In this document: positions 1-35,114 of the stretch, in pieces
Layout: every line of letters starts with the position of its first letter
How positions within the stretch are numbered: the stretch's first letter is position 1
Assembly: GCA_964552475.1 (NCBI GenBank)
Contig: CAZKFZ010000003.1
Span: 24,078 to 88,077 of the forward strand
Origin: an uncultured Candidatus Saccharibacteria bacterium
Lineage (GTDB): Bacteria; Patescibacteriota; Saccharimonadia; CAILAD01; BJGX01
Length of the DNA stretch: 64,000 bases
Direction: 5' to 3'
Position numbers and translations under genes: made by a program
Notes under the pieces: model-generated
What the model was told of the DNA's origin: nothing
The model's database searches: none
Seen by the model: the letters and a program-made list of their open reading frames with translations, nothing else

Positions 1-114
1 TCAAACATATCTTATAGCAGGAATACTGTTTCTAGAAATAACAACAATGATGGTGTTTATAGCGCGCTATATTCAAATTTTTTAACTAAGCATAATTCTA
101 GGTGTATTTAGTTA

Positions 115-13536: not shown

Positions 13537-13823
13537 TAATTAAGTATGTGGAAAACTATGTGTATAACTTGTGAAAACTATGTGTATAGAGTGTATAAAT
13601 ATACACAATATCTACACAATTTATTATTAAGGCTACTTCATGGTGGTGGAGAAGTGTTATTTATACAGAGTTTATACCTACGCTACTCACACCTTTGTGC
13701 ACACACTAAACGCTCGATATTTCGCTTGTTTAGAGGGAAAAATATTGGTTATCCTACCTATCCACATAGCCTAATACTATTACTACTAAATAATACGAAT
13801 AAATATGATAAGATAGAAAACAT
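13537..13823. promoter_or_regulatory. dnaA-dnaN intergenic DnaA-box cluster and AT-rich unwinding element (candidate oriC)
   Basis: TGTGGAAAA at 13547-13555; repeated 'GAAAACTATGTGTATA'; TATCCACAT at 13759-13767; strongly AT-rich stretch 13770-13823 immediately before dnaN. Confidence 0.55.
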
Positions 13824-14924
13824 ATGAAACTCTCTGTATTACAAAACAATTTAAACAAAGCACTTAGTGTAACTAGTAGAATTATTCAAAACAATAATAG
13901 TCTTCCTGTACTTAGTAATATACTATTACAAACTAGTGATGGTCGTTTAGAACTTCAAGCTACCAATTTAGAATTAGCAATTTCTTATAAAATAGGTGCC
14001 AAAATAGAAAAATCAGGTAGCCTTAGTGTACCTGCTAGGTTACTAAGTGACCTCATACATAGCCTACCGAATGATAAAATTCAATTAGTTAAAGAAAAAG
14101 ACAATTTAAACATACATACTAGTCAGTTAAACTCTATAATAAATGGAATTTCTGCAACAGAGTTTCCAAAAATACCCAAGGTAAAAACTTTACAACAGTT
14201 TAATGTAGCTACAGAAGACTTTATAAAAGGTTTAGAATATGTACTAACTTCAGTTAGTTTAGATGAGTCCAGACCAGTTCTTACAGGGGTGTATTGTAGA
14301 TTTAAAAATTCGGTCCTTACTTTTGCAGCAACCGATAGTTATAGATTAGCTCAATTTAGTATTACTGGTCTTAAAATTAATGATCTTGAAATTATCATTC
14401 CATATAAAACTATTCAAGAACTTATACGTATTATTAAAGCCGAAGAAGTTAAAGATTTAGAAGTTGGTATTACAAAGACCGAAATAGTGTTTTCTACTAA
14501 AAATTTCACTCTTACATCTCAACTTATAGATGGAAGTTATCCAGATTACTCCAAAATAATACCTAAAAGTTCCGCAACATCTTTAGTAGTAGATAAAGAC
14601 GAACTACTAAGTAGTTTAAAAATCGCAAGTCTATTCTCGCGTGAGAACGCTAACACCATCACTTTATCTGTATCTAAAAATAATCTTACTATTCAATCCC
14701 AAGGTTCTCAGGTAGGTACTAACGAATCCACTATACTAGTGAAATCTAGTGGATCAGATCAAGAGATAAATTTAAACGCTCGATATTTAATAGATACTAT
14801 CTCGGTTATTACTGAAAAAACTATTAATATTTCATTAAACGATAAATTAGATCCATGTATAGTTTCTGGTGGTAATAAAAAATCTCCCAACAATTTCCAT
14901 ATTATTATGCCCTTAAGGAGTTAA
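13824..14924 (+). CDS. dnaN: DNA polymerase III beta sliding clamp
   Basis: 366 aa; conserved position after dnaA; beta-clamp-like three-domain layout. Confidence 0.9.
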   Translation: MKLSVLQNNLNKALSVTSRIIQNNNSLPVLSNILLQTSDGRLELQATNLELAISYKIGAKIEKSGSLSVPARLLSDLIHSLPNDKIQLVKEKDNLNIHTSQLNSIINGISATEFPKIPKVKTLQQFNVATEDFIKGLEYVLTSVSLDESRPVLTGVYCRFKNSVLTFAATDSYRLAQFSITGLKINDLEIIIPYKTIQELIRIIKAEEVKDLEVGITKTEIVFSTKNFTLTSQLIDGSYPDYSKIIPKSSATSLVVDKDELLSSLKIASLFSRENANTITLSVSKNNLTIQSQGSQVGTNESTILVKSSGSDQEINLNARYLIDTISVITEKTINISLNDKLDPCIVSGGNKKSPNNFHIIMPLRS

Positions 14925-14938
14925 GGGGTAGTAATAAG

Positions 14939-15991
14939 ATGATTACTCATCTTAGTTTGAGGCAGTTTAGAAATCACTCTAAACTAGATTTAGATATAAA
15001 CTCTAACTTAATTACAATTACTGGCCCCAACGCATCTGGTAAAACTAACATACTAGAATCCATATATATTAGTTCACTAACAAAGTCCTTTAAGGTGAGT
15101 GATAATAAACTTATACAGCATAATAAAGATTTTTTTACCATCGACCGAATAGATGATGATACTACTATTCATCTAAGATTCATTCAAACCCCACAGAGCC
15201 GTTCTAAATCTTTAAAAATAAAAAACTCACCAAAACCACTATATAGCTTAGTGGGCCGTAACCCAGTTACTCTTTTTGAGCCAAATGATATGTATTTATT
15301 TATAGGTCTACCAAGTGTGCGAAGAAACTACTTAGATAAAATACTCTCACAAGTAGATAAACTATATCTACAAAATTTGCGCAACTATAAAAAAATACTA
15401 CATCACCGTAATAGCTTACTTAAAAGAGCTAAGAAAGAGACTATATCTAATCTATATGATCAACTATTTGTTTTAAATATACAAATAATAGAACCAGGTT
15501 ATTATTTGTCAAAAAAAAGAGCCGAGTTTATAAAAAACATACAAGGTAGTATTAATAACTATTACCATTCTATTAGTGGTGAAAATAAAAAAGTAGTTAC
15601 CAAATTCATAGCCAGTGCCAAATCACCTCAAGAATTACTTAGTAATATAGAATTGGCTCTAAATATAGATATTGCTAGTGGATTTTCTACGGTAGGTCCA
15701 CATAAAGAAGATTTTAATATTGTTATGGATAGTTATAATCTAGCCGATTCAGCATCACGAGGAGAGCTTAGGAGTTTAGTATTAGCATGTAAGCTATCAG
15801 AGTTAGATTATATAGAAAAATCAATTTCTAAGCGTCCTACTCTTCTATTAGACGATGTTCTAAGTGAGTTAGACAACAAGCGCCAAAAATTTTTACTTAA
15901 TAATTTAGATAAGCAACAGACTTTTATTACTACTACACACCTACCTAGTCATTTAGGCCTAGATTTTCAACATATAGAGTTACCATTATGA
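14939..15991 (+). CDS. recF: DNA replication/repair protein RecF
   Basis: Walker A 'ITGPNASGKTNILESI'; SMC-like signature region 'LLLDDVLSELD'. Confidence 0.85.
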   Translation: MITHLSLRQFRNHSKLDLDINSNLITITGPNASGKTNILESIYISSLTKSFKVSDNKLIQHNKDFFTIDRIDDDTTIHLRFIQTPQSRSKSLKIKNSPKPLYSLVGRNPVTLFEPNDMYLFIGLPSVRRNYLDKILSQVDKLYLQNLRNYKKILHHRNSLLKRAKKETISNLYDQLFVLNIQIIEPGYYLSKKRAEFIKNIQGSINNYYHSISGENKKVVTKFIASAKSPQELLSNIELALNIDIASGFSTVGPHKEDFNIVMDSYNLADSASRGELRSLVLACKLSELDYIEKSISKRPTLLLDDVLSELDNKRQKFLLNNLDKQQTFITTTHLPSHLGLDFQHIELPL

Positions 15992-16269: not shown

Positions 16270-17073
16270 TTATTTATCTAGAGGTATACCATCGCCACCG
16301 TAGTCATCTAGGTATATTTTAGAATTACTAGGTATTTTATTACTATCTATATATTTAGCCAAAGTAGGGTTATCGGCAGTCAACACATAAGTATTTCTAT
16401 CTATACCAGTACTATTTAGAAAGTCAGTTACAGTCTTTGCTGTGGCTTTTATTTCACTATCAGGATAAGGAGGTGTTAAGCCCATGTAAAACAGATTTTT
16501 TACCACAACTATAGTATTACTTTTACCATTACTATCAACTATTTTGCCACTTTTTATAACATAATTATCTGTGCTATAAGGTAAGAAGTTTAATATTGTT
16601 TTATTAGTTGGAGTCGGGTCAGTATCTTCAAGTTGTTGTTTTTTCTGATCTTCAGTTAAATTAGAGTATGGTATATATTTTGTTTTAAATTGTATCTTAA
16701 TATCTTTCAACTGCTCACCTTTTACTGATGATATTTTATTGATTGTAATTATATAAACATAATTATTTTTTAATGCATTAAAATTAATAACTAAGTCTTT
16801 ATTGTTAATATTAATGCTTCTAACTAAATCTTTTTCAGCATTTATATCACTTAGAGTTACGCTTTTTAAATCTATTTCCTTATTGAAAGTTAATATCATT
16901 TTATTAGCAGATGTTGGAACTAAGTTATTAGTATTAGGGTTAGTACTTTCTAATTTGAATACACTATTAGACTTATTATTTGAGTACAATAAAGCAATAG
17001 CAAAAACTATAAAGGTAATTATTATTATAATAATAATTACAGTGAAATATTTATTTTTTAGTAAATTATTCAT
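16270..17073 (-). CDS. bitopic membrane protein, possible VirB8/PrgL-like T4SS component
   Basis: Short N-terminal tail, single TM ('FTVIIIIIIITFIVFAIALLY') and roughly 230-aa extracytoplasmic domain; lies after the hydrolase gene as prgL does. Inference from topology and synteny only. Confidence 0.35.
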   Translation of the reverse strand: MNNLLKNKYFTVIIIIIIITFIVFAIALLYSNNKSNSVFKLESTNPNTNNLVPTSANKMILTFNKEIDLKSVTLSDINAEKDLVRSININNKDLVINFNALKNNYVYIITINKISSVKGEQLKDIKIQFKTKYIPYSNLTEDQKKQQLEDTDPTPTNKTILNFLPYSTDNYVIKSGKIVDSNGKSNTIVVVKNLFYMGLTPPYPDSEIKATAKTVTDFLNSTGIDRNTYVLTADNPTLAKYIDSNKIPSNSKIYLDDYGGDGIPLDK

Positions 17074-18218
17074 TACTCAACCCTCATAAATCCAGTTAGA
17101 TATCTAGCATTAACACTATGGGTGGATTGTTTTACCTGATCACTTTCGTTACCACCTATAGTAGTGAAGTTACCAGCTCCGTCATATTCGGTTACAATAT
17201 TTACATGACTAGGATAAGGCATTAAACCTTCTTTATAAATAGCCACGTCACCTGGCTGAGGTTCAAAACCCGCCTCACCTTTCGGGTGGTAGAAGTTGTT
17301 TGTTCTAGCATAATCCAGTATTGCTTGGGCCGAGGCTATCGTTCCATTACCACCACCTACGGTTAATGGTTTTCCAGCTTCTCTAAATATATAACTAACA
17401 AAGTATGCACACCAAGGTGGGTTACCACCACCAGTATATTTAGAAATATCTTGTTCACCACTATTCCAAGACTCTAACTCATCTCGAGCAACACTTACAA
17501 CTGAACTATTTTTATTAATAACAGGACTGTCACATTTGCCCTCACCTATATCAGTGTCTGTAGAAGTAGATGGGTTATTTGGACTACCATTATTAGTTAT
17601 TCCTGCGGCTTGTAAATATCTATCAAATTCAGGTGCTTCATTATATCTAAGTACAATATCTTGACCAGCCCCAGCCGCAATATCGTCTATTACACTTTGA
17701 GCATATTGCCTTGGAGTAATTACGTTATTACCAACTATAGTGTCTAATAATGACGGGTCATCAATGGCAGCAGGATAAAAATGGCTAAGTGCAAGTTTAA
17801 AGATATCGTTACCTAAATCTCTAAATTTTTTCTCATACTCTATTTTTGCTACTGCATCTTGTATAGGCCCAGGTGCATCTTTGGCTCTAGCGTAAGGTAT
17901 GGCTGGTGGGTATGCTTGTTTCACACTATTCCAGGTACTATCTATATACTGATATCTTCCGGATGCCGAAGAGCCACCAGCATCAGCAATATAATCTCCA
18001 CTACCAGAACTTTCATTAAAAGCAATTACTTGTAAAAACCTATCTACATCACCACCTGTTGCGGTTGACGAAGATTCACCTACGCAGTCGGTAGGGTCGT
18101 AAAACGGTCTTTTTTCTATCTCTTTTCTTTGTTGGTTGGTAAGTGCAGAAGATTTAAAAGGTACTAGTAAGAAAACTAGTACTAGTATTATTGAAATTTT
18201 TCTAAACATACTTATCAT
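17073..18218 (-). CDS. secreted bifunctional peptidoglycan hydrolase (lysozyme-like + CHAP), PrgK/VirB1-like
   Basis: Start placed at the internal Met of signal peptide 'MISMFRKISIILVLVFLLVPFKSSA'. Central 'SGRYQYIDSTWNSV' resembles the transglycosylase-like 'G-x-YQF...TW' motif. C-terminal CHAP features: 'PPWCAYFVSYIF' Cys and 'PSHVNIV' His. Confidence 0.6.
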   Translation of the reverse strand: MISMFRKISIILVLVFLLVPFKSSALTNQQRKEIEKRPFYDPTDCVGESSSTATGGDVDRFLQVIAFNESSGSGDYIADAGGSSASGRYQYIDSTWNSVKQAYPPAIPYARAKDAPGPIQDAVAKIEYEKKFRDLGNDIFKLALSHFYPAAIDDPSLLDTIVGNNVITPRQYAQSVIDDIAAGAGQDIVLRYNEAPEFDRYLQAAGITNNGSPNNPSTSTDTDIGEGKCDSPVINKNSSVVSVARDELESWNSGEQDISKYTGGGNPPWCAYFVSYIFREAGKPLTVGGGNGTIASAQAILDYARTNNFYHPKGEAGFEPQPGDVAIYKEGLMPYPSHVNIVTEYDGAGNFTTIGGNESDQVKQSTHSVNARYLTGFMRVE

Positions 18219-18220
18219 TG

Positions 18221-21200
18221 TTAATTTCCTGTTACTGACCAGTGCCAGGCCTCTGAAGGTAGGTTTTTTAATCCATATTCTTGGGCATGTTGTACCATCC
18301 AATTAAAACAAGGTGAGCCTCCGAAATTAAACGCCGAACCACCATTACAATTGAAGTCTATTGCTAATCCTTTTTCATGATTCGATGACCCTGGTTCAGC
18401 GGTAGGTGGATTACAGCTACCACCGCTACAATTTTGGTTATACAAATCAACCTGTTCTTCATAAGACCTAAATCCACCTCCACCCATTATTATTCCGGCG
18501 GCCTGTGCATCTTTTAGTAGTTTATTGAGTTGACTAGCTAAAGATACATTTATATCTATTACACCCCCGGCAGGTGCGGCTACGTCACAAACCATTATTT
18601 TATTTGCAGAAACACCGCCAGGACCATAGGTTTGAGCAACACCATTTACTAAGTTTGGACCTGTACTAGTAGTAATGCCGGGTTCATTTGGGCAAGGCGT
18701 TCCACTAGTGTCTGCATCAGCATTTGGTTCACCACCTATCGGTCCTGTTGGGGTTGATGTTTTAGCATAAATACTTTGGTTATCTTCATCACTACTTAGA
18801 GATACCATTTGGTCGAGTAAAGTATTGTAGTAAGTGTACATTCTATATCGTATAGGTAGTTTATTTTCTTCAATATTAAAGTCTTGTGCTTGTTCTAGTA
18901 TTATTTTACAATCATAAAACTTCATAAATTCACCATCTGCGTCATTGTCGGCTCGATCAACCCTATTTACAGGTGTGACATTACCATTTGCATCTTTAAA
19001 AACTCCTCTATGCCATTCCGGGAAGAATACAAACCACTGAACAGCATTAGCATTAGGATACTTTGCCCTAATGCTAGCTTTTAGTGCCTCGTCATTTAGC
19101 TCATTAAATTTCTTTGATTTAAGTTTGAAATATTGTGAGGTTGGTATCTTTTTCTTAAAACACTCATCATAATGTGTGAGTTTTACTCTATCGTTCTCTG
19201 TGCCTGTGGCGCCACTCTTAATATCTTCAATAACCTTTGCATTATCTAACATATCAAAACTATTAAAATCCTGAGGAGGTATACCGGCGGTATCAATTTT
19301 TAGATATTGGTCACCATTAATACTTGCAGCAAAGGCTTTGTTGTGTTGACCAAATCCGTAGTACAGAGCCGAGCTATGTATGTTTGCCAAAGATCTTAAC
19401 GGGTTTAGAACTTCTTTAAATAATGAACTTGCAGTCTTCATTGCAGTTTTTGGTGTAATGGTATTTTGGGCAATAATACTACGTGCTGATCTGATGTTTT
19501 CACTAGCAAATAATCTATAACCTATACCGTTTTCTTTCTCTTCATTACGACGAGTGTTTTCACTATCTAGAGCTACTTGTCTTGCTTCCACTTCAGTTAA
19601 AAATCTACCACCTATCCTCAAGAAATAATCATTCATAAGTTGTCTAAAACCAGCCGCCTGCCTATTGTAGTTGTCTGGTCCCGACTCTAACCCACTTACT
19701 GCTGTGACCGACCCTGTTCGTACATAAGAAGTAATAATTTCTTTTAGACCAAAATCTTCTATACTATTAAAAACACCCTGTGAGTTATTAACAATCGCAA
19801 GCTTTAATAATTGATAACTTGGTTGAATAAGTTCATCACCAAGTAATAACAGTGTCTTATTGTTATCTGTTAAAAAAGTACAGGATAGTAATAATAAATC
19901 TACAGATGGATCATCGGTTAAATCTGTTTGTCTGGCATTATAAGCTCTAGTAGATGTAGCTTCAGGATTTTGTTCTACTCCACGCAGTTCATTATAAACA
20001 TCGAGCTGATACGAAGTACTACTAGACCAATTATCTTGTTGAGCAATAGTTGCATTATTTTCTACATTACTAAGTTGGTCGGCATTGCGAGTATCGGCCA
20101 TTGTTAATACTTTTATAGCACCACGCTCGGTACTAGCTAACCTACTTTCTATTGCTTTTCTTGCATTACTTGCAGCAGCTTCACTACGAGGTGTATTACC
20201 TAGGTCTAAAAAAGCATATGTAAATGGACATATAGTATTTGCAATACCAGCCCTTACTAAGTTTTTTTCTACAGAGCTTGTTTGTGGCGTATACGAATCT
20301 CTTTCGGGAATGTTTAAATACTTACCTACCGATATATCGTAAGGACTAGTGCCGTCAGCCATATCTTCATACATTTTATTTATACCAGCCACTAGATCTT
20401 GTTTATTTTCTTTAAAAGGTATTTTATTGTCAGGGTTAGTATTATTATATGCTGTCACAGCATCTCTATAGTTGTTTTGAAACTCGGTTATTTGACCTTG
20501 ATAAGATGAAAAGTCTATTGTTTCTTCGGTAGTTGGGGTTATTCTACCGATTGTTTTGTTAAAAACATAGCGATTCACCTCATCTCTACTACCTCTAAAT
20601 TCTTCAGTATCTTTTTTGCCAGCATAGTCTAGATGGATATTTGCTAATTGATTTATTTCTCTAGTAACAGGTTGGCGAGCCATCATATTAAATATTGGAT
20701 ATTGTTTTTGGATACAATAGCTAGCAGCTTGGTTAGAACCCAACTGATTTAAAGGTATTACTTCTCTTGTTCTTTTATTAAAAACTTCTTTTGGTACATA
20801 TCTAGTTTTACCTTCAGAATTTATTTTGAGTTGGAGTCTAAGCTCATACACGCAACCAGCATTATCTAAGGTTTGATACCGCGCTTGTCGCCAGTCTATT
20901 TGTGATAACCTATCTAACGTTGTGCCTGGTTCAATAGTTGATGGGTTAGCGGCAACTGCAGTATTTGGGCCTTTATAATCTACCTCTCCAGTATAGGAAA
21001 GGGCTCTTATACTTGCTTCTAAAGCACCTTTACTGAAAGCCTGTGCAACATCTATACCAAACTCACGAATCTTTGAATTTGTTAAGACTGCCTTAACAGC
21101 ATCCCATGGGTTTTGAATAAGATAGACGATAATAAAAATTGGCACCATAGCGATAGCTAGAATACCGAAAGCAATAGCCACAAAAGCCATTTTGTGTTTT

Positions 21201-21679
21201 GATACTTCTTCACCAACTTTTGCTCCAATCTGAGCACCAGCAGTTCCTCCAAGCGCTGCCCCTGCTGCTGCTCCAGCTCCTTTAAGTGCTGTGTTTGATA
21301 ATTGTCCTTCACGCTGAGCTTTTTTTTCTGGCGACTCCTTGTCTATTTTATCTACGGCTTTTAGGGCTTTGTCGGTACCTCCACCACCCTTCCCGCCGGA
21401 GGCGGCTTTATCAATAGCTTTATTCGCTATTTTATTAACCTTTTGACCACCAGTATCATCTTTTTGTATACCACTACCACCCATACCTTCCATACCTTTA
21501 GGTAGTCCTTCGGTTGGGCTCAGTCCAGATCCAGTAATAGCTTTTGGTCCGCCATCTTGTTTACCTTTCTCTTTTGAAAGTGGGCTTACGGGTAAATCGG
21601 ATGCACCAGCAAGGCCACTAGGCTTAGCAGCCTTGTTGTTTGTGTCATCGTCTGGTAATTTTGTTGCGGTTGCAGGCAT
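18221..21679 (-). CDS. giant (1152 aa) membrane-anchored protein with C-terminal M15 (VanY-like) peptidase domain
   Basis: Gly/Ala/Lys-rich disordered N-terminus, one TM helix ('MAFVAIAFGILAIAMVPIFIIVYLI'), about 900-aa extracytoplasmic region. C-terminal 'GGGFRSYEEQ', 'SNHEKGLAIDF' and 'EAWHWS' match the M15 Zn D,D/L,D-peptidase motifs. Confidence 0.6.
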   Translation of the reverse strand: MPATATKLPDDDTNNKAAKPSGLAGASDLPVSPLSKEKGKQDGGPKAITGSGLSPTEGLPKGMEGMGGSGIQKDDTGGQKVNKIANKAIDKAASGGKGGGGTDKALKAVDKIDKESPEKKAQREGQLSNTALKGAGAAAGAALGGTAGAQIGAKVGEEVSKHKMAFVAIAFGILAIAMVPIFIIVYLIQNPWDAVKAVLTNSKIREFGIDVAQAFSKGALEASIRALSYTGEVDYKGPNTAVAANPSTIEPGTTLDRLSQIDWRQARYQTLDNAGCVYELRLQLKINSEGKTRYVPKEVFNKRTREVIPLNQLGSNQAASYCIQKQYPIFNMMARQPVTREINQLANIHLDYAGKKDTEEFRGSRDEVNRYVFNKTIGRITPTTEETIDFSSYQGQITEFQNNYRDAVTAYNNTNPDNKIPFKENKQDLVAGINKMYEDMADGTSPYDISVGKYLNIPERDSYTPQTSSVEKNLVRAGIANTICPFTYAFLDLGNTPRSEAAASNARKAIESRLASTERGAIKVLTMADTRNADQLSNVENNATIAQQDNWSSSTSYQLDVYNELRGVEQNPEATSTRAYNARQTDLTDDPSVDLLLLSCTFLTDNNKTLLLLGDELIQPSYQLLKLAIVNNSQGVFNSIEDFGLKEIITSYVRTGSVTAVSGLESGPDNYNRQAAGFRQLMNDYFLRIGGRFLTEVEARQVALDSENTRRNEEKENGIGYRLFASENIRSARSIIAQNTITPKTAMKTASSLFKEVLNPLRSLANIHSSALYYGFGQHNKAFAASINGDQYLKIDTAGIPPQDFNSFDMLDNAKVIEDIKSGATGTENDRVKLTHYDECFKKKIPTSQYFKLKSKKFNELNDEALKASIRAKYPNANAVQWFVFFPEWHRGVFKDANGNVTPVNRVDRADNDADGEFMKFYDCKIILEQAQDFNIEENKLPIRYRMYTYYNTLLDQMVSLSSDEDNQSIYAKTSTPTGPIGGEPNADADTSGTPCPNEPGITTSTGPNLVNGVAQTYGPGGVSANKIMVCDVAAPAGGVIDINVSLASQLNKLLKDAQAAGIIMGGGGFRSYEEQVDLYNQNCSGGSCNPPTAEPGSSNHEKGLAIDFNCNGGSAFNFGGSPCFNWMVQHAQEYGLKNLPSEAWHWSVTGN

Positions 21680-21739: not shown

Positions 21740-23605
21740 CTACCCAGTTACTTCTTCTACAGAAATGTCTTTACTATCATTCGCACTCGTTACTGCCATA
21801 CTTTCACTTATTAAGTCTTGTGGGTTGGTAGTAATAAGCTCGGTTTCCGTTGGGCTAGCTATAATATGAAGTATTATGTGGCTTAAACCAGCAAAAAATA
21901 ACCCTTCACCCACAGGGAACTGACTAAGTCTTTTCTTCTCTTCACTAGTAAGCTTGAATGTCTCAGCCACCACATCAACAGCCGCTGGATTTTGTTTAAG
22001 TAAAAGCTGCAAACTAGAGTTGTTTACAATTGCTCGGCCTAATCTAGTACCTAAGAAATCTTCGACATCTTGTGAAATAGTCGTAAGACCCAAGAAATAT
22101 TTTCGAGCACGTTTTGCAATAGAAAACATAAACATAGCTGAGTCTTGGTACTGCATAAGTTGCCATGCCTCATCTATAATAAGTACCCGTTTTTTCTTCT
22201 CAGACTTTACTCTGTTCCAGACATAATTAAGCACAATATACATACCTATGGGCCGCAATTCGTCTTCCAAATCTCGAATATTAAATACTACAAACGGATT
22301 ATTTAGATTTACATTACTTTGCTGAGAAAATATGCCAGAAAAAGTACCCTCGGTAAATCTACGAAGTCGTGCAGCCAGTGCTGGGCCATTTCCACCCATT
22401 TCGTTTAAGTTATTATATAGATCTAACATTACTGGAGGCTCAGCGGTATGAGTAAGTGGGTCGTTAGTAATGCCTTTTTGGGCGTAAGTATTAATGAGCG
22501 CAATGTCTAGATCAGATTCTTCTGTGGGTGAAAGCTCACCCATCATTAGTCTAAGTAGACCATGGAGCATTATGATGTTTGCTCGCAGAGCATTATCGGC
22601 TTCGTCTGAGTCTATAGCTGTAGGGATATCAAAAGGGTTCACATGGCTATCACTAGTTAGACTAAGCTGTAAAAAGCTACCACCTACAGCATCGCATAGT
22701 GTTCTATATTCGTTTTCTGGGTCTATTACAATTATTTCGGTACCAAACATCAAAGAACGCAAAGCTTCAAGTTTTACAGCAAAAGACTTACCAGCACCAG
22801 ACTTGGCAAATACCACCATGTTGGCATTTTCTAAACTAAATCTATCAAATAATACCAAGCCGTTATTGTGACGGTTAATACCATAAAGAATTCCCTCCTC
22901 ATTGCTAAGGTTGGCGGTGGTGAATGGGAAAGTAGTAGAAATTGCGCCGGTGTCCATATTGCGTTTCACACCTAGTAGGTCGCTACCTAGTGGTAGAGTT
23001 GAGGTAAAACCTTGTTCCATCTGTATAGTAGCCGGCTTTGTATATATAAGACTTGTACCCAAAACTGACTCTATTTTTTTTACTAACTCCTCAAGCTCCT
23101 CAAGTGTTGTTCCATAAATCGTTACGTACAAACCAAGCCTAAAAAACCTATCTTCACCTACCTGTAATTTATCACGCAATTCTTCGGCATCACTTAAAGA
23201 TGCTTCAAGAGCTGGGTCTCTAACTTTACCTTTTTCGGCATTTATAGATTGATTAGCTTCTAGTTGACCAACTTTTTTCTTAAGATTATCTAGTACTACC
23301 CTACTCTCAACCGGTTCTATTGCTAGGCTTATATCTATTATTTCGTCCATATTTATAAGAGGACTAAGCCAACCAGTAAATAAGCTCCTAGGATAAGCAT
23401 ATACAAATAATGTTCTGGCAAAGCGCGAGCCGATACGTATATAATTCGCTTCTATTTGTATAGAGCTAGGTGCTATTACGTCACGAAGTGTTACAACACC
23501 CTGGCGATATATTTGTTGAGCTTGTTGTTGAGCATTGGCATTGGCTTGTTGTTGGGGTGTAAGAGTTGGGGTTGTCGGTTGTGCTGGTTTTTTACCAAAT
23601 ATCAT
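21740..23605 (-). CDS. VirB4/TraC/PrgJ-family T4SS ATPase
   Basis: Walker A 'AKSGAGKSF', Walker B 'VLIIDEAWQL'; N-terminal 'RTLFVYAYPRSLFTGWLSPLI' VirB4-domain motif; Q-rich N-terminal tail. Confidence 0.85.
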   Translation of the reverse strand: MIFGKKPAQPTTPTLTPQQQANANAQQQAQQIYRQGVVTLRDVIAPSSIQIEANYIRIGSRFARTLFVYAYPRSLFTGWLSPLINMDEIIDISLAIEPVESRVVLDNLKKKVGQLEANQSINAEKGKVRDPALEASLSDAEELRDKLQVGEDRFFRLGLYVTIYGTTLEELEELVKKIESVLGTSLIYTKPATIQMEQGFTSTLPLGSDLLGVKRNMDTGAISTTFPFTTANLSNEEGILYGINRHNNGLVLFDRFSLENANMVVFAKSGAGKSFAVKLEALRSLMFGTEIIVIDPENEYRTLCDAVGGSFLQLSLTSDSHVNPFDIPTAIDSDEADNALRANIIMLHGLLRLMMGELSPTEESDLDIALINTYAQKGITNDPLTHTAEPPVMLDLYNNLNEMGGNGPALAARLRRFTEGTFSGIFSQQSNVNLNNPFVVFNIRDLEDELRPIGMYIVLNYVWNRVKSEKKKRVLIIDEAWQLMQYQDSAMFMFSIAKRARKYFLGLTTISQDVEDFLGTRLGRAIVNNSSLQLLLKQNPAAVDVVAETFKLTSEEKKRLSQFPVGEGLFFAGLSHIILHIIASPTETELITTNPQDLISESMAVTSANDSKDISVEEVTG

Positions 23606-23606
23606 T

Positions 23607-24488
23607 TTACTTTTGCCCTCCAGCTATATTAGGGGGTTGGGGATTGCTAGGTTGACTTGGTTGTGCGGGATTAGAGTTAGTTTGTCTATTTGCAGCCGAG
23701 TATAGATCGTCTGGGACTGGTTCTTTAGGTTTTTGGCTTGGTATTTTGGCCAGACCATCTTTTCTTAGGACTGCCGGAGTACTCATGTCAGCTATATCAG
23801 TAAGTGATTGGTTTTGGCTTTCTGCTACATTATAGGAGTTGTAAAACAACTCTATAACTTCTTGTGTGTTGAGTATAACTGTCCTTACACCTATCTGCGC
23901 CAAGCCTTGAGCTACCTGGTTAGTCCTCTGCAATAAATCATTCTTGCGTTGTTCGTACTCTCCACTCGTTTGAGTAACCTCAGCCGAGTCACTAGATGCT
24001 CCACGTAATTTAGTGAATATATTCGCTTTAGTTACAACATTTACATAGTATGGAACAACCACGTAAAAGCGTTTTTCCATAATATTTACTTCGTTTAGGA
24101 GACTTTTTATATTGGTAACGTAGTCATCCATTAGATCGGCTAGTAATGGATTAGGTTGATCACTTTGTATTACCTCTAGCTTACTTAGGTAATTATCTAA
24201 ATCTATCTTGCGTGACTGTATTACTATTTGAATAGGAAAATGCAAACCGTTTAGGAAACCCTGAAAAGCAAACTCAATAGCTTCTTTCTCGTCTGGGCTT
24301 TTAAGATCGAAATTAGTTGGAGAACATAGTATTACGGCCCGTAAACTACCATCACGCATCACCACGATACCATCTCTTATTTCTGAAAAAGGCAAATGAC
24401 TTTGAGTGCTCATCTGCTTGTTTTGTTCTTTTTTTGGTGGAGTGACCGAGTTTACGTATTCACGCTGTTGGGGGGTAATCTGTGCCAT
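23607..24488 (-). CDS. hypothetical protein translationally coupled to VirB4 (T4SS-associated)
   Basis: 293 aa, Pro/Gln-rich C-terminus; stop and the VirB4 start are in TAAAATG coupling arrangement. Confidence 0.4.
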   Translation of the reverse strand: MAQITPQQREYVNSVTPPKKEQNKQMSTQSHLPFSEIRDGIVVMRDGSLRAVILCSPTNFDLKSPDEKEAIEFAFQGFLNGLHFPIQIVIQSRKIDLDNYLSKLEVIQSDQPNPLLADLMDDYVTNIKSLLNEVNIMEKRFYVVVPYYVNVVTKANIFTKLRGASSDSAEVTQTSGEYEQRKNDLLQRTNQVAQGLAQIGVRTVILNTQEVIELFYNSYNVAESQNQSLTDIADMSTPAVLRKDGLAKIPSQKPKEPVPDDLYSAANRQTNSNPAQPSQPSNPQPPNIAGGQK

Positions 24489-24573: not shown

Positions 24574-25416
24574 TTACTGCCGTACTTGCGCACTAGTACC
24601 TGGCGAAAGTTGTTGAGTTTGTTGGTTAGCTCTGGTTGCTACTTGTTGAATAGTAAGACTACTACCTTGCATTGCAACCTGACTAGCAGCTGGGTTTATA
24701 GTTTGTAATTGTTGCGGCACTTGGTTTACAGAAGGTTGACTATTGTTTGGTTTTCGTAAAGCTTGTCGAACTTGGGTGGCTGCATTTTGGCGCGAATCTT
24801 CCTTGGCGTTTTGTAGTAGTTTTTCAACCGTATTAGCTCTTTGACTAGTTTCATCTAAAACATCATCTTTTGGTGTAATTAACCTATGAGCGGTGTCTAT
24901 AGTATTATTAGAGCTTTCTTCTGTACCAACTTGTTGAGGGCCAATAATTCGTTTGGCATAAATAGATGCTTCATTATCTCCTTCGTGTAATTGTACACTT
25001 GGGTCTTTAAAGTTACCACGCGTATCTATAATAGACGCAAGCTGTTTAAGTTGACCAACCGAAACAGATTGATCTTTCTCTAGATTTTCTTTGGGTTTTT
25101 CTACATCTTTTACAATAACCTCTTTTTTATCATCTTTTATCCAGGTGCGAGTTCTAGGTACAACTAAGAATCTAAAAAACGCCACCATATAGTCTTCAAA
25201 AGGTACTCCTTCACGCGACCCAAACCCAAGTAAAAGGAAAAAACCTGTTACCGGAAAAGCAAATATAAGAGCGACTATTATAGAAAAGCTAAATATACGC
25301 CACATTAAAAATCCCCACATCAGCGCAATTATTACGTATATAAATTGCTTTACTGAGAGCGGCCCTAGTATTTTATCTTCGGTCTCTACATTTTGTGGTA
25401 CTTTGTATTCACCCAT
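24574..25416 (-). CDS. VirB3/PrgI-like small membrane protein with Gln-rich C-terminal tail
   Basis: N-terminal hairpin of two TM helices ('FIYVIIALMWGFLMWRIFSFSIIVALIFAFPVTGFFLLLGF'); sits between the VirB6-like and VirB4 genes as prgI does. Confidence 0.4.
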   Translation of the reverse strand: MGEYKVPQNVETEDKILGPLSVKQFIYVIIALMWGFLMWRIFSFSIIVALIFAFPVTGFFLLLGFGSREGVPFEDYMVAFFRFLVVPRTRTWIKDDKKEVIVKDVEKPKENLEKDQSVSVGQLKQLASIIDTRGNFKDPSVQLHEGDNEASIYAKRIIGPQQVGTEESSNNTIDTAHRLITPKDDVLDETSQRANTVEKLLQNAKEDSRQNAATQVRQALRKPNNSQPSVNQVPQQLQTINPAASQVAMQGSSLTIQQVATRANQQTQQLSPGTSAQVRQ

Positions 25417-25460: not shown

Positions 25461-27710
25461 TTATGGTCTCACAACTCTGTTATTATTAAGATTTGCATGA
25501 GCTACACTTTGGTGAACTGTAGGAGATGAGTTAGGATTGAGCCTCTGTTGTTTAGCAACTTCTCCAGCGTGCATTTGGTCGTAAGCAATTCTTTTATGAT
25601 GAATATCCAGAGGAACTCCAGTAGGCGCCGGAGGTGTGGCACTATCGTTTGCAACCTGTCTTGTTGTTGCTTCATATAGGTTAGTATAAGCAATTCGTTC
25701 TCTATCAGCCGGTGTAACGCCTGCTGCTTGACCACCATCGGTTCTTGCTTGTTTTTCTACATCCCATGCAATCACCGATTCTTGGTATGTTCTTCCACCT
25801 GTCTCGTGAGCTATCTTATCAAAATCTGCTCTTTGTTTGGCGTTTAGTGGTGGTAAACCAGCATCAAAACCTTGTTTGCCTTCAACTAACTTGTCTCTGT
25901 ATGCTTTCTGAAGTACTTTCTTGGCAACCTTGGCATCTGGTGTTGATTCACCATTCTTTGTTTGACGCGATAAAGCAATTTGATCATCAACATCCATAAG
26001 GCCAATATCTTTTTTCTTCGCCTCTTCAACTTTGTCATCGGTTCTGAGTTTATTTTGCTTAAAACTTCTTCCTAGCTTCGTATTGCTACCACGAAAAGCC
26101 GCACTAGCACCCTCAAACCCCTTAGATTTTAGCTCAGCAAGCTTGCCTTCTTGACCACTCTTCTTCACAGCACCTTTACCAGCGCCAATTGCAGCTTTAC
26201 CCACTCCTGTATTTGCAACAGCTTTACCTGCTGCTCCCATAATATCACCACTAAGTTTGAGCGTTTTTGGAACCAAAGCAAGTATAAGAACAGGTACAAA
26301 TATAGCAATCAAATTAGTTAAGAAGTTCGCCACAGCACCCTGGAATCCTCCAGAATCAAACAAACCATTTTGTAAAAGATTTACAAATATAGCTCCTATA
26401 GCAAACAAAAGATTTACCAATAAGAACATAATAGATAGCTTTATCATGTACTTCCACCACTGCTTAAAGAACTTCTCGGTGTTTGGTAATACCCAAGCAG
26501 CAAAAGCTATCGGAGCAAACAAAACCAACCCAACTAGTGCTAAGTAACGTAGCATTAAATAGAAGAAAGCAATTATCGCCACTATTAGGCCTATTATTTC
26601 GGCAATTTGTAGCATTACAAACTGCCCAATTGTCTGGAATATACCACCTGCAGAAGGATTGACACCGCAAGTTGGTACAAAAAGGCAAGCAAAAGCTTCG
26701 CCTGGTGTTGGAGGAGCACCACCTGTGCCACCTGGAACATTAAAGCTTTGCAGTAAAAACTGAGGTAGTGTACTACCTAAGATATTTCCCAAATCTAAAA
26801 TAACTTGACATATGAGTAATGAAAACTGCGTAAGTATAATTGCCGCTATTAACTTGGGCAAGGTCTTTTTAATAGTATAGTTATCTAAACCTGGTATTGC
26901 CACAAAATTAGCAATAATGATAAATAGAAATATTAGTATATAAAAAGAATTAGCTAGAGTAATCATGGCGTTTACACCATCCTTTAGCTCTACTTGAACA
27001 CTTGAGGCGCCAGAATTACCAACTAAAACAGGGTTCTCTAATAATCCTGTCATTGTATCAATAGTAGTACCTAGTGCCTCAACTAAAAAGTTCTGTACCG
27101 GACAAACTATAAAAGTTAAAGGGCTATTAAGAGTGTCCTCACAAGCATCTAGAGCTTCTTCTTCGCTAGCTTTAGCATCTAGAGCTTCTAATAGATCATC
27201 TGTGAGAAAACGAGGTGCCGCTCCTGTATATCTTGCTTCAACATCAGTACCCTGAAAATCATCATAATCACCACCATCCCATGGAAAACAATCAGTGGGC
27301 TTAACTACAGAACAAAATGTTTTGTCTGGGTCTGAGTTGTTTTCACCACCTTTAAAAGCTCTATCATAATTACGAAAGTTAGATAGACCTATTTGGTCTC
27401 CCCCACTAGCAAACGGATTAGTCACACTAAAACTTTGCCTAAGCTTGGCTACAATAACTCCATCTACTAAACCAAAAGAAATATAATCACCCGTATTCTC
27501 TACATAAGAAGGGTATCCAGTCACTTCACTCCAATATGGATCGTATTTGTATACCTCATCACCACAATCAAGCTCACCAGATGAATTAAACGAGAAAGTA
27601 TCATCACCACCACAAGCTGCATGAGCTTTGTTGGTAAATATAATCATACTAAAAAAAACAATAACCAACGACAGAATTGGTAAAAGCAAAATACGGGAGA
27701 GCTTTTTCAT
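25461..27710 (-). CDS. VirB6/TrbL/PrgH-like polytopic membrane protein
   Basis: Signal peptide, about 240-aa Cys-containing extracellular domain, 5-6 TM helices, about 280-aa charged C-terminal domain; first gene of the minus-strand T4SS-like operon. Confidence 0.5.
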   Translation of the reverse strand: MKKLSRILLLPILSLVIVFFSMIIFTNKAHAACGGDDTFSFNSSGELDCGDEVYKYDPYWSEVTGYPSYVENTGDYISFGLVDGVIVAKLRQSFSVTNPFASGGDQIGLSNFRNYDRAFKGGENNSDPDKTFCSVVKPTDCFPWDGGDYDDFQGTDVEARYTGAAPRFLTDDLLEALDAKASEEEALDACEDTLNSPLTFIVCPVQNFLVEALGTTIDTMTGLLENPVLVGNSGASSVQVELKDGVNAMITLANSFYILIFLFIIIANFVAIPGLDNYTIKKTLPKLIAAIILTQFSLLICQVILDLGNILGSTLPQFLLQSFNVPGGTGGAPPTPGEAFACLFVPTCGVNPSAGGIFQTIGQFVMLQIAEIIGLIVAIIAFFYLMLRYLALVGLVLFAPIAFAAWVLPNTEKFFKQWWKYMIKLSIMFLLVNLLFAIGAIFVNLLQNGLFDSGGFQGAVANFLTNLIAIFVPVLILALVPKTLKLSGDIMGAAGKAVANTGVGKAAIGAGKGAVKKSGQEGKLAELKSKGFEGASAAFRGSNTKLGRSFKQNKLRTDDKVEEAKKKDIGLMDVDDQIALSRQTKNGESTPDAKVAKKVLQKAYRDKLVEGKQGFDAGLPPLNAKQRADFDKIAHETGGRTYQESVIAWDVEKQARTDGGQAAGVTPADRERIAYTNLYEATTRQVANDSATPPAPTGVPLDIHHKRIAYDQMHAGEVAKQQRLNPNSSPTVHQSVAHANLNNNRVVRP

Positions 27711-27801
27711 AACACTTATGTTACACTAAATAACTTACAAATTATAGACCTTAAAGACAGGCCTTATCGCTTTAAACATAACAAGTGATATAATACATAG
27801 C

Positions 27802-28395
27802 ATGCAATTTATTTACAGACCACTACTTGCTGCCCAGTGTGGAATACTAGACAATCTACCTAATGGATCTAACTTGTGCCAAAACGGTCTATCCCTTAAT
27901 GATGTTATTAGTCTGTTGGCTGGCTATATTGTGACCCTGATAGGTCTTATTTTAGCAGTTGTTATATTATATTGCGCTGTCGAGATTGTTACCTCGGGTG
28001 GTAGCCAAGAGCGAATAAAGTCGGCCAAAAATCGTCTTACCCAAGCTGCCATTAGCTTGGGCTTACTAATATCTTTTAGAGCAATAATTGCGGTCTTTGG
28101 TATAGATGGTGGTAATACCGGTGCGGGCGCCCCAACACTGTTTAATGGCGTAGATGAGTTTAGTCTTGAGGGTGTAGAGAAGTTAATTGCTAATGCTGCA
28201 CAGATACTTATGATGGCAGTAGGCGCATTTTCGGTAATATTTATAGTGGTTGGTGCGGTACAATATATTACTTCGGCTGGCAACGAACAAAGCGTAGCAA
28301 ACGCCAAGAGGACAATTACCTACGCTGTAAGCGGGCTTATACTCGCACTTTCTACGGTCGCAATCATTACGTTTATTAATACTCAGTTTTTTTAA
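27802..28395 (+). CDS. VirB2/TrbC-like pilin-family protein carrying two tandem pilin modules
   Basis: Two internal copies of the module shared with the three downstream paralogs: hydrophobic helix, 'SGGSQERIKSAKNR' / 'SAGNEQSVANAKRT' loop, second hydrophobic helix. Confidence 0.5.
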   Translation: MQFIYRPLLAAQCGILDNLPNGSNLCQNGLSLNDVISLLAGYIVTLIGLILAVVILYCAVEIVTSGGSQERIKSAKNRLTQAAISLGLLISFRAIIAVFGIDGGNTGAGAPTLFNGVDEFSLEGVEKLIANAAQILMMAVGAFSVIFIVVGAVQYITSAGNEQSVANAKRTITYAVSGLILALSTVAIITFINTQFF

Positions 28396-28439
28396 GTAAC
28401 CTTGCCAAAACCTTAGCGTAAGAGTTAATATATTATCAA

Positions 28440-28730
28440 ATGAAGTTACTTAGTATATTATTACTAGCAGATTTTGAAGCTCCTCCTGGACTAGGTGGGC
28501 CAGCAACCTTTGGTGATTTAGTAGGTAAGGTAACAAACACACTACTTCTTATTGCTGGTGCTGTTGCCGTGATAGTAATTGTGGTAGGTGGAATACAATA
28601 CACACTATCGGCTGGTGATGAGAAGCGTACGAAAACTGCCAAAGATACTATTACTAATGCCGTTATTGGCCTAGTAATAGCTATAATGGCCTTTGCGATA
28701 GTAAACTTTGTACTTGGTACGTTTAAATAA
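28440..28730 (+). CDS. VirB2/TrbC-like pilin paralog
   Basis: 'VVGGIQYTLSAGDEKRTKTAKDTITNAVIGLVIAIMAFAIVNFVLG'; two hydrophobic helices with a short charged loop. Confidence 0.5.
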   Translation: MKLLSILLLADFEAPPGLGGPATFGDLVGKVTNTLLLIAGAVAVIVIVVGGIQYTLSAGDEKRTKTAKDTITNAVIGLVIAIMAFAIVNFVLGTFK

Positions 28731-28818
28731 GAAAACTATTGTCACTTGTTGCAAAAAAACTACCTTGCGGTATCATAAGAAGTAAGCTAAAATATCTAGT
28801 AAATGCTTTATAAATAAT

Positions 28819-29196
28819 ATGGAGAATAAAATGACATTATCTAAAAAAACGCAAAGACTAGCAATTGTAACAGGTAGTAGTGTAGTTGCATTGGTCCCAA
28901 CAGTAGCGTTGGCAGCCGACACTACTCAAGATGCTGTAGATGCCGTACAGCCCGCCTCGGCCGCTACTGGCGACCTGCAAAGCAATATTAAAAACATTAT
29001 TAACGCCATGCTCTTAGTTATTGGTATTGTGGCAGTAATAATGCTAATTGTGGGCGGTTTTAGATATGTAATAAGTAATGGCAACGAAAAGGCTGTTACT
29101 GGTGCCAAAGACACTATACTATATGCAATTATTGGTATTGTTGTAGCTCTACTTTCATTTGCTATTGTAAACTTTGTGCTTGGTCAGTTTAGTTAA
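28819..29196 (+). CDS. VirB2/TrbC-like pilin paralog
   Basis: Signal-like N-terminus plus 'IVGGFRYVISNGNEKAVTGAKDTILYAIIGIVVALLSFAIVNFVLG'. Confidence 0.5.
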   Translation: MENKMTLSKKTQRLAIVTGSSVVALVPTVALAADTTQDAVDAVQPASAATGDLQSNIKNIINAMLLVIGIVAVIMLIVGGFRYVISNGNEKAVTGAKDTILYAIIGIVVALLSFAIVNFVLGQFS

Positions 29197-29228
29197 AAAA
29201 TAATTCAAGGGGTGTAAGTTAAACAATT

Positions 29229-29582
29229 ATGAGAACTAAAATTAAAACACTTTCTGCAATAACTACGGGGTATGTAGTTCTTGCGGCTACTAGAGTCTAT
29301 GCAGTTTCTAACCCCGCTCAAACGGGCGCCAACAAAGCTAAAGACCCAAGCCAACCCACCGATTTACTTGCAAATGTTAAGCTTATTACTAATACCCTTC
29401 TGCTTGGAATAGGTGTAATATCTGTCATTATGATAGTTATCGGTGGTATACGTTACGCGACCTCTGGTGGTGACGAAAAAGGCACAAAAGGCGCCAAAGA
29501 CACTATTTTATATGCCGTTATTGGCCTTGTGGTGGCGCTTCTTGCATTTGCTATAGTTAACTTTGTACTAGAAATTTTCTAA
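29229..29582 (+). CDS. VirB2/TrbC-like pilin paralog
   Basis: 'VIGGIRYATSGGDEKGTKGAKDTILYAVIGLVVALLAFAIVNFVL'. Confidence 0.5.
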   Translation: MRTKIKTLSAITTGYVVLAATRVYAVSNPAQTGANKAKDPSQPTDLLANVKLITNTLLLGIGVISVIMIVIGGIRYATSGGDEKGTKGAKDTILYAVIGLVVALLAFAIVNFVLEIF

Positions 29583-34273: not shown

Positions 34274-34333
34274 TAGTCTTTAGTGTTGTGTTCTGAAAAA
34301 CTTCAGAGCACAAATCTGTAGACAATAAACCTG

Positions 34334-34422
34334 GAGAGGTGCCCGAGTGGTTGAAGGGAACAGTCTTGAAAACTGTCAGGCTCGCAAGGGTCTCGTGGGT
34401 TCGAATCCCACCCTCTCCGCCA
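34334..34422 (+). tRNA. tRNA-Ser (TGA), CCA encoded
   Basis: Anticodon loop 'CTTGAAA', long variable arm, 'GGTTCGAATCC' T-arm, 3' CCA. Confidence 0.85.
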
Positions 34423-34457
34423 TTTTCTGTGGCTCAGTGTTTGCTGGGCAAAAGAAA

Positions 34458-35114
34458 ATGGTCAAAACTATAATAATTGGAAAATCAGTTGAAAACCAAG
34501 ATATACTAGCACACCTATTTAATGGTGAGCCGAGTAATAGTCAACGGTCTGTTTTAATAATCGCTGGCGTACATGGTAATGAGATAGAAGGAGTATGGTT
34601 AGCAGAGGCAATTTGTAACAACTTACAAACTAATACTACTTCTCAAGACATCAGCGTGATACCAATACTTAATCCTGATGGTGTTAAAGCCAACACTAGG
34701 CACAACCACAATGGTGTAGACCTAAATCGAAATATGGCAACCAAAGACTGGGTTTCAACTCCACTACAACCCAAGTACAAACCCGGTAAAGTCAAAAATA
34801 GTGAGCCAGAGACACAAGCCCTTATTAATTTTGTAGAAGATACCAATCCAAAACTAATCATAAGCCTGCATTCATATAAAACCCCTATGCTCAACATAAA
34901 TGGTGACTGTAAAGCTATTGCTGAGAAAATCGCCTCTGAAGCAAAACTAGACGTAAAAGAATCTATTGGGTATGATACGCCGGGTTGTTTAGGAACATAC
35001 TATGGGCTAGAAAGAAATATACCAGTCATTACCTACGAGCTTTTTCGTGGTGACACAAAAAATAATGTTATTGAACATAATTTAAGCGCTATTATTAACG
35101 CCATTTGTAAATAA
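34458..35114 (+). CDS. M14-family zinc carboxypeptidase-like protein (AstE/AspA / MpaA-like)
   Basis: 'IIAGVHGNEIEG' zinc-ligand motif. Start moved to the ATG at 34458 because the listed ORF start overlaps tRNA-Ser. Confidence 0.55.
   Translation: MVKTIIIGKSVENQDILAHLFNGEPSNSQRSVLIIAGVHGNEIEGVWLAEAICNNLQTNTTSQDISVIPILNPDGVKANTRHNHNGVDLNRNMATKDWVSTPLQPKYKPGKVKNSEPETQALINFVEDTNPKLIISLHSYKTPMLNINGDCKAIAEKIASEAKLDVKESIGYDTPGCLGTYYGLERNIPVITYELFRGDTKNNVIEHNLSAIINAICK

Follow-up and report, generated by a model that had tools for sequence, protein, structure and literature searches.

The 64,000-nucleotide stretch analysed here (the window; positions 24,078 to 88,077 of contig CAZKFZ010000003.1, assembly GCA_964552475.1, from an uncultured Candidatus Saccharibacteria bacterium) carries four consecutive plus-strand genes encoding five pilin modules, next to a type IV secretion system (T4SS) locus. 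This pilin array is an ancient, ordered set maintained by purifying selection, not a repertoire prone to turnover. It is rather probable that it constitutes the pilin operon of a chromosomal, origin-proximal MPF_FATA-like T4SS, whose five position-specific VirB2-like paralogues would build one heteromeric tube. The array is another example of the pilin arrays already published for Patescibacteria and, because the array type is already published, the window in itself only adds a further case. What goes beyond PMC10633639 and PMC12102498 (here and throughout, these two articles and PMC12857230 are cited for the available part of each text) is the positional orthology under purifying selection, the recurrent fusion at the proximal end, the disappearance of the signal peptide from gene 1, and a link to Mycoplasma integrative and conjugative elements (ICEs).

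Four genes and five modules of a pilin family

Every pilin of the array ends in a module of about 70 amino acids (aa), consisting of a hydrophobic helix, a polar loop with the motif S.G(D/N)E....AK, and a second hydrophobic helix, and the hydropathy of the proteins likewise displays two long hydrophobic helices separated by a short polar loop. The preliminary description of this DNA had reported four plus-strand genes sharing such a C-terminal module, the first of them with two modules in tandem, and both points are borne out (Table 1): the whole-protein scores against the Pfam family PF18895 (T4SS_pilin) are 61.4, 47.4, 42.0, and 39.6 bits for genes 1 to 4, all above the gathering score of 26.6 bits (E-values from 9e-17 to 6e-10), with two matched stretches in gene 1. 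The consensus quoted at that time fits modules m2 to m5 but not m1, which is degenerate (CAVEIV..SGGSQE..AKNRL), and the ending FAIVNFVLG is that of genes 2 and 3, is approached in gene 4 (FAIVNFVLE), and is found in neither module of gene 1. The N-terminal regions differ among the four proteins, as had also been noticed: by eye, genes 3 and 4 have signal peptides with Sec-like n-h-c regions and AxA-type sites, gene 2 has about 10 hydrophobic residues only, and gene 1 has no signal peptide and starts with a 30-aa Cys-containing tail.

Regarding the wider family, genes 2 to 4 resemble the TrbC/VirB2 family PF04956 with 24.4, 25.4, and 21.0 bits (E-values from 2e-5 to 4e-4), below the gathering score of 27.9, and the Pfam profile search gave no PF04956 match in gene 1. 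Among the 109 relatives of gene 4, all match PF18895 and 62 match PF04956 at E <= 1e-3, the best at 1.1e-8. This resemblance indicates similarity at the superfamily level and not curated membership. The third model, NF045849 of NCBIfam, describes the Mbov_0395 family of pilin-like conjugal transfer proteins from Mycoplasma ICEs; with an equivalog cut-off of 40 bits, it gives 42.8 for gene 1, 44.2 for gene 2, 35.3 for gene 3, and 31.3 for gene 4, and it is matched by 109/109 relatives at E <= 1e-3. On profile similarity, the nearest curated family of the window pilins is this pilin-like protein of Mycoplasma ICEs. The assignment to a VirB2-like pilin family therefore holds, with PF18895 above threshold in the four proteins, sub-threshold similarity to PF04956, and a T4SS adjoining, and the profile search, which could have returned an unrelated family such as holins or immunity proteins, returned the pilin models PF18895 and NF045849 instead.

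The AlphaFold2 (AF2) model of gene 4, built on the 109-sequence alignment, is a hairpin of helices 46-77 and 83-116, with a pLDDT above 90 over the module. The model of gene 1 has four helices (32-64 and 69-98, 122-157 and 162-196; mean pLDDT 67), arranged as two hairpins with a disordered linker between them. Fold searches with these models did not retrieve the solved conjugative pilins and carried no information, since hundreds of unrelated structures resemble a hairpin of two helices.

An ordered set conserved by position

Related loci were gathered by a VirB4-based scan with one genome per species, which gave 253 relatives; the best 80 of these, going by record titles essentially all from Candidatus Saccharibacteria or Saccharimonadia and the nearest 98% identical, were kept for the locus survey, in which a hidden Markov model of the module was run over the 80 loci and then iterated. 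Arrays are present in nearly all of the loci having enough upstream sequence, and the PF18895 genes are linked to VirB4 and VirB6-like genes in all related loci with enough flank. The most frequent number of modules is five, with a range of five to eight in the other clades. Within the clade of the window, for which 16 loci with 81 modules were used to assess orthology (VirB4 74-98% identical to the window), the comparison of copy number that had been proposed gives five modules in all 15 complete arrays. The layout 2+1+1+1, divergent from the VirB6-like gene TrbL_3, is kept on contigs whose gene 1 orthologues are 93%, 62%, and 48% identical.

The modules are conserved by position as well as by number. 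For 72 of the 81 modules, the nearest neighbour comes from another species and occupies the same position in the array; for 6/81 it comes from another species and another position, and for 3/81 from the own genome. Considering the window alone, the best match of m1 to m5 stands at the same position in 15, 12, 11, 14, and 12 of 15 loci, respectively. In a neighbour-joining (NJ) tree of the modules, m1 is monophyletic over the 16 loci with full bootstrap, m2 to m4 form pure position-specific clades among the nearer relatives only, and m4 and m5 fall into one joint clade. The conclusion leans on the nearest-neighbour test, because the tree cleanly resolves only m1 over the 16 loci. Assigning orthologues over the whole of the Saccharibacteria from their best BLAST hits was abandoned, the margins being too small outside the clade of the window, and the only claim kept beyond this clade is a gradient from divergent proximal modules to canonical distal ones. 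The module most conserved across species is m4.

Some departures from this arrangement were encountered in the survey. In L018/L019 (15023-17190, plus strand), the whole array stands about 3 kb downstream of VirB4 and shares its strand, rather than lying upstream in divergent orientation. An additional single pilin gene is found about 1.3 kb past the array, on the other strand, in many Nanosyncoccus-like loci. Besides, one close homologue (P0143) is deposited as 'pilin [Streptomyces caniscabiei]', which may mean that the genome of an epibiont, or of a contaminant, was recorded under the name of its actinobacterial host.

Ancient diversification and purifying selection

The paralogues are diversified and not identical copies, in line with what had been expected: the five window modules share 21-63% of their amino acids and, once codon-aligned, 41-63% of their DNA. 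Third-codon identity between them is 27-41%, that is, saturated. The sole DNA repeat is found at the 3' ends of genes 2 to 4 (70-73% over 98 nt), and the DNA repeat comparison revealed neither near-identical copies nor gene-conversion tracts among the window pilin genes. The repeated duplication and diversification suggested by the preliminary description can consequently be retained as an ancient event, given this saturation, but not as an ongoing turnover.

Identity to the closest relative is 86-93% for the four pilin genes, a range that also takes in PrgI (91%), TrsD (92%), VanY (90%), and the neighbouring solute-binding protein (89%). The rough dN/dS values of the four pilin genes in this comparison are 0.026-0.076, similar to those of the same four neighbours. 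Within the pilins, the N-terminal tails have a dN/dS of 0.06-0.19 and the modules of 0.01-0.08, the tails being no higher than the neighbouring non-pilin genes. Compared to locus L008, the tails are 39-55% and the modules 68-77% identical, and module m4 of gene 3 is 98.6% identical to that of L006 (dN/dS 0.01). Turnover, recent duplication or conversion, and raised dN/dS, which are the marks of variation arrays of the Bartonella/Anaplasma type, are thus not those of this array. The antigenic or host-range variation that had been put forward is not supported, in the light of the fixed number and order of the modules, the proportion of positional orthologues, and the low dN/dS.

No gene of the locus evolves faster than the VirB6-like TrbL_3, with 73-76% amino-acid identity to the nearest relatives against 86-98% for its neighbours, and a dN/dS of 0.11. 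Its length varies (749, 765, and 903 aa), and two copies are present in L010. If any component tracks the host range, TrbL_3 would be a better candidate than the pilins.

Fusion, splitting, and N-terminus of gene 1

When gene 1 is aligned with 16 homologues, the two-module architecture is kept down to about 25-35% identity. In L014 and L017 (VirB4 87-89% identical; tblastn) and in many other loci, m1 and m2 are two adjacent genes, and the m2 gene of these split relatives starts almost exactly at a conserved LF.GVD motif which, in the window, lies within the 22-residue linker. On these alignments, gene 1 is a fusion of two modules, each of which has a gene of its own in close relatives. The NJ tree of VirB4 shows the fused and the split state by turns: L014 and L017 are split within a group that is otherwise fused, and L024 is fused within one that is split. 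In another, separate and large clade, to which Nanosyncoccus belongs, there are distinct fused forms, without exception at the TrbL-proximal end, and L089 (2816-3817, minus strand) has one pilin open reading frame (ORF) with three modules. Given this recurrent fusion and splitting of m1 and m2, a relationship of the Rosetta-stone type is suggested, in which different paralogues would be physical neighbours in one heteromeric assembly.

The topology predicted for gene 1 is in the same line. The net charge of its two loops is +3 and +1, and its N-tail, linker, and C-terminus are neutral or acidic; as positively charged loops stay on the cytoplasmic side according to the positive-inside rule, the loops would be cytoplasmic and the termini external. 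This would bring the C-terminus of m1 to the same outer side as the N-terminus of m2, which is compatible with a fusion.

Gene 1 appears to have lost a signal peptide still held by more distant orthologues. Those of L014, L015, L017, L021, and L024 have a full signal peptide ahead of a conserved Cys pair, while only about 12 residues, including a P-x-L-A-like remnant, are left in the window, L012, and L013. An upstream start restoring this signal peptide was considered and rejected, there being no in-frame ATG, GTG, or TTG after the preceding stop. The Cys pair itself (CG....C; codons at 27838-27840 and 27877-27879 in the window) directly precedes the first helix of the gene 1 orthologues and possibly forms an extracellular disulphide loop.

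The T4SS locus and its surroundings

The array is divergent from a minus-strand T4SS of the Gram-positive type comprising TrbL_3, PrgI, TrsD, VirB4, VanY, and CHAP (Table 1). With VirB4, TrsD, PrgI/VirB3, a VirB6-like protein, and pilins clustered near dnaA, the locus fits the MPF_FATA-like T4SS of Patescibacteria. The genes dnaA, dnaN, and recF are found at 12145-15991 (dnaA at 12145-13536, 4.7 kb from the T4SS locus), so that the T4SS stands at about 0.3-12 kb from dnaA-dnaN-recF and the locus can be placed beside the chromosomal origin. In this respect, the window agrees with PMC12102498, according to which patescibacterial T4SS loci are often origin-proximal (near dnaA). No relaxase or coupling protein (T4CP) domain was detected in the 30 scanned non-array ORFs, which represent nearly all ORFs of at least 250 aa, and no further PF18895 module exists elsewhere in the window. 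The remaining genes of the window are housekeeping ones: yidC, mnmE, rhamnose genes, valS, groEL, femAB, tsaD, and eight tRNAs.

Table 1. Coordinates of the pilin array, its parts, and the adjoining T4SS genes (positions in the window; residues in the encoded protein)
Feature	Position	Residues	Strand	Remarks
Pilin gene 1	27802-28395	197 aa	+	two PF18895 modules in one protein
Gene 1, N-tail		1-30	+	conserved Cys pair C13, C26
Gene 1, module m1	27892-28104	31-101	+	
Gene 1, linker	28105-28170	102-123	+	acidic, Gly/Pro
Gene 1, module m2	28171-28392	124-197	+	
Pilin gene 2	28440-28730	96 aa	+	short hydrophobic N-terminus
Gene 2, module m3	28509-28727	24-96	+	
Pilin gene 3	28819-29196	125 aa	+	121 aa if the ATG at 28831 is used
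Gene 3, putative signal peptide		1-32	+	Sec-type (..VALA-AD), followed by acidic N-tail
Gene 3, module m4	28975-29193	53-125	+	
Pilin gene 4	29229-29582	117 aa	+	
Gene 4, putative signal peptide		1-25	+	..VYA-VS, followed by N-tail
Gene 4, module m5	29364-29579	46-117	+	
Divergent intergenic region, VirB6-like gene / pilin gene 1	27711-27801			
VirB6-like polytopic membrane protein (TrbL_3)	25461-27710	749 aa	-	PF19590 (precomputed); PF04610 (weak)
PrgI / VirB3-like protein	24574-25416	280 aa	-	PF12666, 49.7 bits
TrsD / TraC-like protein	23607-24488	293 aa	-	PF26593 (precomputed); NCBIfam TrsD, VirB4_plasma N-terminal region (weak)
VirB4-type ATPase	21740-23605	621 aa	-	P-loop_TraG, 91 bits; AAA_10; CagE_TrbE_VirB
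Predicted cell-wall hydrolase	18221-21679	1152 aa	-	C-terminal VanY, PF02557, 48 bits
Predicted CHAP hydrolase	17073-18302	409 aa	-	PF05257, 39.5 bits

VirB4 is effectively split over 21740-24488, the TrsD/TraC-like protein being followed by the ATPase with stop and start 1 nt apart. The TrsD/TraC-like protein is the counterpart of the N-terminal domain of VirB4 and weakly matches that region in VirB4 of the Mycoplasma type. The cell-wall hydrolase appears to be swapped among loci, its C-terminus being VanY in the window, L006, and L008, and Peptidase_M23 in L010/L011 (L010 1-1687). Elsewhere in the window, an ORF for a Peptidase_M14 (34347-35114, plus strand, GTG at 34347) overlaps the gene for tRNA-Ser(UGA) at 34333-34422, and its true start must on that account be further downstream.

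Concerning expression, the gaps within the pilin array are of 44, 88, and 32 nt, and the terminator scan found no plus-strand terminator inside it, which fits one operon but is not evidence for one. For gene 3, the ATG at 28831 is preferred by the gene callers on identical public contigs. An extended -10-like element, TGATATAAT, is located at 27786-27794, 7 nt short of the ATG of gene 1 and with no Shine-Dalgarno sequence between the two, and an equivalent element (TGTTATAAT or TAGAAT) is found at the same distance in L006, L008, and L010. This arrangement suggests that the transcript of the array is leaderless or near-leaderless. A generic promoter scan gave no more sites than the shuffled expectation (9 versus 7.0 +/- 2.6).

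Proposed assembly and alternative explanations

According to the model favoured here, each module would be inserted in the cytoplasmic membrane as a hairpin, with the N- and C-termini outside and the K/R-rich loop inside, the entry in the membrane relying on the Sec signal peptide for genes 3 and 4 and on translocation of the N-tail for genes 1 and 2. The VirB4 ATPase and the VirB6-like platform would then extract the different paralogues and co-assemble them into one heteromeric pilus-like tube spanning the cell wall toward the host bacterium, and the VanY and CHAP hydrolases would assist the passage through the wall. Since they would co-assemble into one tube, the paralogues would be structural components that cannot replace one another, such as a base, a shaft, and a tip, or the members of a mixed ring, and not alternative antigenic versions. 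Taken together, the order, conservation, and purifying selection of the set and the repeated fusion and splitting favour a single heteromeric structure over an antigenic repertoire.

Patescibacteria, the Saccharibacteria among them, live on host bacteria to which they attach. The system probably serves this epibiotic interaction and not conjugation, because neither a relaxase nor a coupling protein was found among the large ORFs scanned in the window. Both are absent as well from the T4SS of Candidatus Southlakia epibionticum ML1 (SEML1_0006-0019), the one tractable species, in which Wang et al. 2023 (Cell, PMC10633639) reported the T4SS, including its pilin series, to be essential for the epibiotic lifestyle.

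The array could alternatively be a variation repertoire, whose paralogues would be alternative major pilins, used singly or mixed, for immune or phage evasion or for matching of host strains. The paralogues indeed differ most in their N-terminal tails, these tails evolve faster than the modules, and the size of the array ranges from about four to eight modules across the class. This explanation is nonetheless quite unlikely, as the number and order of the modules are fixed within the clade of the window, most nearest neighbours are positional orthologues, near-identical copies and conversion tracts were not found, and all dN/dS values are far below 1 and like those of PrgI, TrsD, VanY, and the solute-binding protein. 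In addition, use of one paralogue at a time is hard to square with the covalent fusion of two of them, and S. epibionticum is reported to be unable to dispense with its pilin series, which is essential (PMC10633639).

A membrane channel deserves somewhat more credit, yet it still appears improbable. The modules would then remain two-helix subunits around the VirB6-like protein and PrgI, without any extracellular filament, a view to which the closest curated family lends support, being that of the Mbov_0395 pilin-like protein of wall-less Mycoplasma ICEs (matched by all 109 relatives), as do the missing signal peptide of gene 1 and the general absence of pili from Gram-positive T4SSs (PMC10633639; PMC12857230). 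Set against this are the classic pilin layout of genes 3 and 4, with a signal peptide followed by a hairpin, the similarity to TrbC/VirB2 pilins, a tube about 9 nm wide at the contacts between Saccharibacteria and hosts (PMC11880426), and the five to eight paralogues, which are many for the lining of a channel. As to unrelated small membrane proteins (holins, bacteriocin immunity proteins, or transporter fragments) that would look like pilins by hydrophobic composition only, they could be invoked on the basis of the many weak sub-threshold Pfam matches of the window pilins to assorted membrane domains of unknown function, and of the PDB profile search by sequence, which gave nothing else than chance matches to the transmembrane helices of MacB (E of about 0.04). 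This last possibility is effectively refuted by the above-threshold matches to two independent curated pilin models, the conserved polar loop motif, and the invariable linkage to VirB4 and VirB6-like genes in loci with enough flank.

Several points weigh against the heteromeric tube. In terms of family and fold, the window pilins fall below the curated TrbC/VirB2 cut-off of Pfam, fold searches of the models could not tell a pilin from any helical hairpin, and the PDB profile search returned no solved structure that is a sequence relative of these pilins. In terms of evolution, an alignment of 70 aa is too short to resolve the orthology of m2 to m5 beyond the nearer relatives, the dN/dS values are rough because dS is about 1, and gene fusion hints at physical adjacency without proving it. 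A strict five-part stoichiometry cannot be general either, because other Saccharibacteria clades have six to eight modules; for the same reason, the idea that five modules make up one five-fold ring layer of a conjugative-type pilus was not adopted. To our knowledge, no Patescibacterium has a pilus or tube that experiments have tied to such pilins. The tube observed by cryo-electron tomography (cryo-ET) in the Saccharibacterium Mycosynbacter amalyticus, which measures 8.6-9 nm by 61-70 nm and runs from the inner membrane to the host, was assigned to no genes by its authors (PMC11880426).

A bolder and more doubtful proposal, which we hold only tentatively, would nevertheless connect the two. 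The 'lance' or conduit of about 9 nm by 60-70 nm seen by cryo-ET would be a fixed-length tube made of obligate, non-interchangeable paralogues (five here, six to eight elsewhere), the recurrent fusion would record a direct contact between the TrbL-proximal modules, and the ancestry of the pilins would lie with a pilin-like protein from ICEs of the Mollicutes type, not with diderm systems. If this were true, it would represent the first VirB2-type filament of heteromeric composition and, among monoderm T4SSs, the first pilus.

Comparison with known systems

Arrays of this kind were catalogued by Quinonero-Coronel et al. 2025 (PMC12102498), who applied PF04956 and PF18895 to 3,035 genomes of Patescibacteria and counted 441 VirB2 arrays, each of 2-11 genes and notably from Saccharimonadia and Microgenomatia. 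S. epibionticum and these catalogued arrays share with the window the class of organism, a T4SS of the Gram-positive type near dnaA, a tandem series of PF18895/VirB2-like pilins of divergent sequence, and no relaxase or coupling protein found nearby. The differences are in number and range: a 2025 review (PMC12857230) counts six VirB2-like pilins in ML1, of conserved structure and divergent sequence, and speculates on a conduit pilus, whereas the window has five modules in four genes; and the identity of the published arrays is 25% on average and 54% at most (PMC12102498), compared to 21-63% among the window modules. The available parts of PMC10633639 and PMC12102498 make no mention of fused pilin genes, positional orthology, or an analysis of selection.

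The second known system is the Mbov_0395/MMCAP2_0565 family (NF045849), which has in common with the window a monoderm MPF_FATA-type system and a VirB4 with a TrsD-like N-terminal part. The Mbov_0395-type protein of Mycoplasma is encoded by a single gene in a mobile conjugative ICE where a coupling protein is present, while the window has five chromosomal paralogues, and no conjugation genes were found among its scanned ORFs. In the review PMC12857230, the small proteins CDS13 and CDS15 of Mycoplasma ICEs are described as VirB3-like. PMC12102498 states that virB2 homologues are absent from the monoderm T4SS classes and leaves open a co-option from diderm systems, and Mycoplasma is not mentioned in the available part of that text. 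The NF045849 match questions the claim that monoderm (MPF_FATA) T4SSs have no VirB2 homologues, and it suggests that the patescibacterial pilins may originate within the monoderm MPF_FATA lineage itself, which would be simpler than a co-option from diderms.

In the TrbC/VirB2 pilins (VirB2 of the T-pilus, TrbC of RP4, and F-type TraA), a signal peptide precedes two hydrophobic helices that a short polar loop connects, a layout to which genes 3 and 4 of the window appear to conform, and similarly to the window pilins they are encoded beside homologues of VirB3, VirB4, and VirB6. The window differs from them by its monoderm host, its several paralogues, and one tandem fusion. Several co-encoded paralogous small subunits, each with a distinct position in one filament, are also found in type IV pili and in the pseudopili of type II secretion systems. 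With these pilin sets, the analogy is functional only, as the fold and the assembly machinery are unrelated.

Finally, the VirB2 arrays of Bartonella and Anaplasma phagocytophilum, from which PMC12102498 already drew the analogy of antigenic variation or host adaptation, resemble the window in their tandem amplification and in the non-conjugative nature of the T4SS locus. While those arrays are read as antigenic or host-interaction variation, the array of the window is conserved in copy number, order, and sequence under purifying selection.

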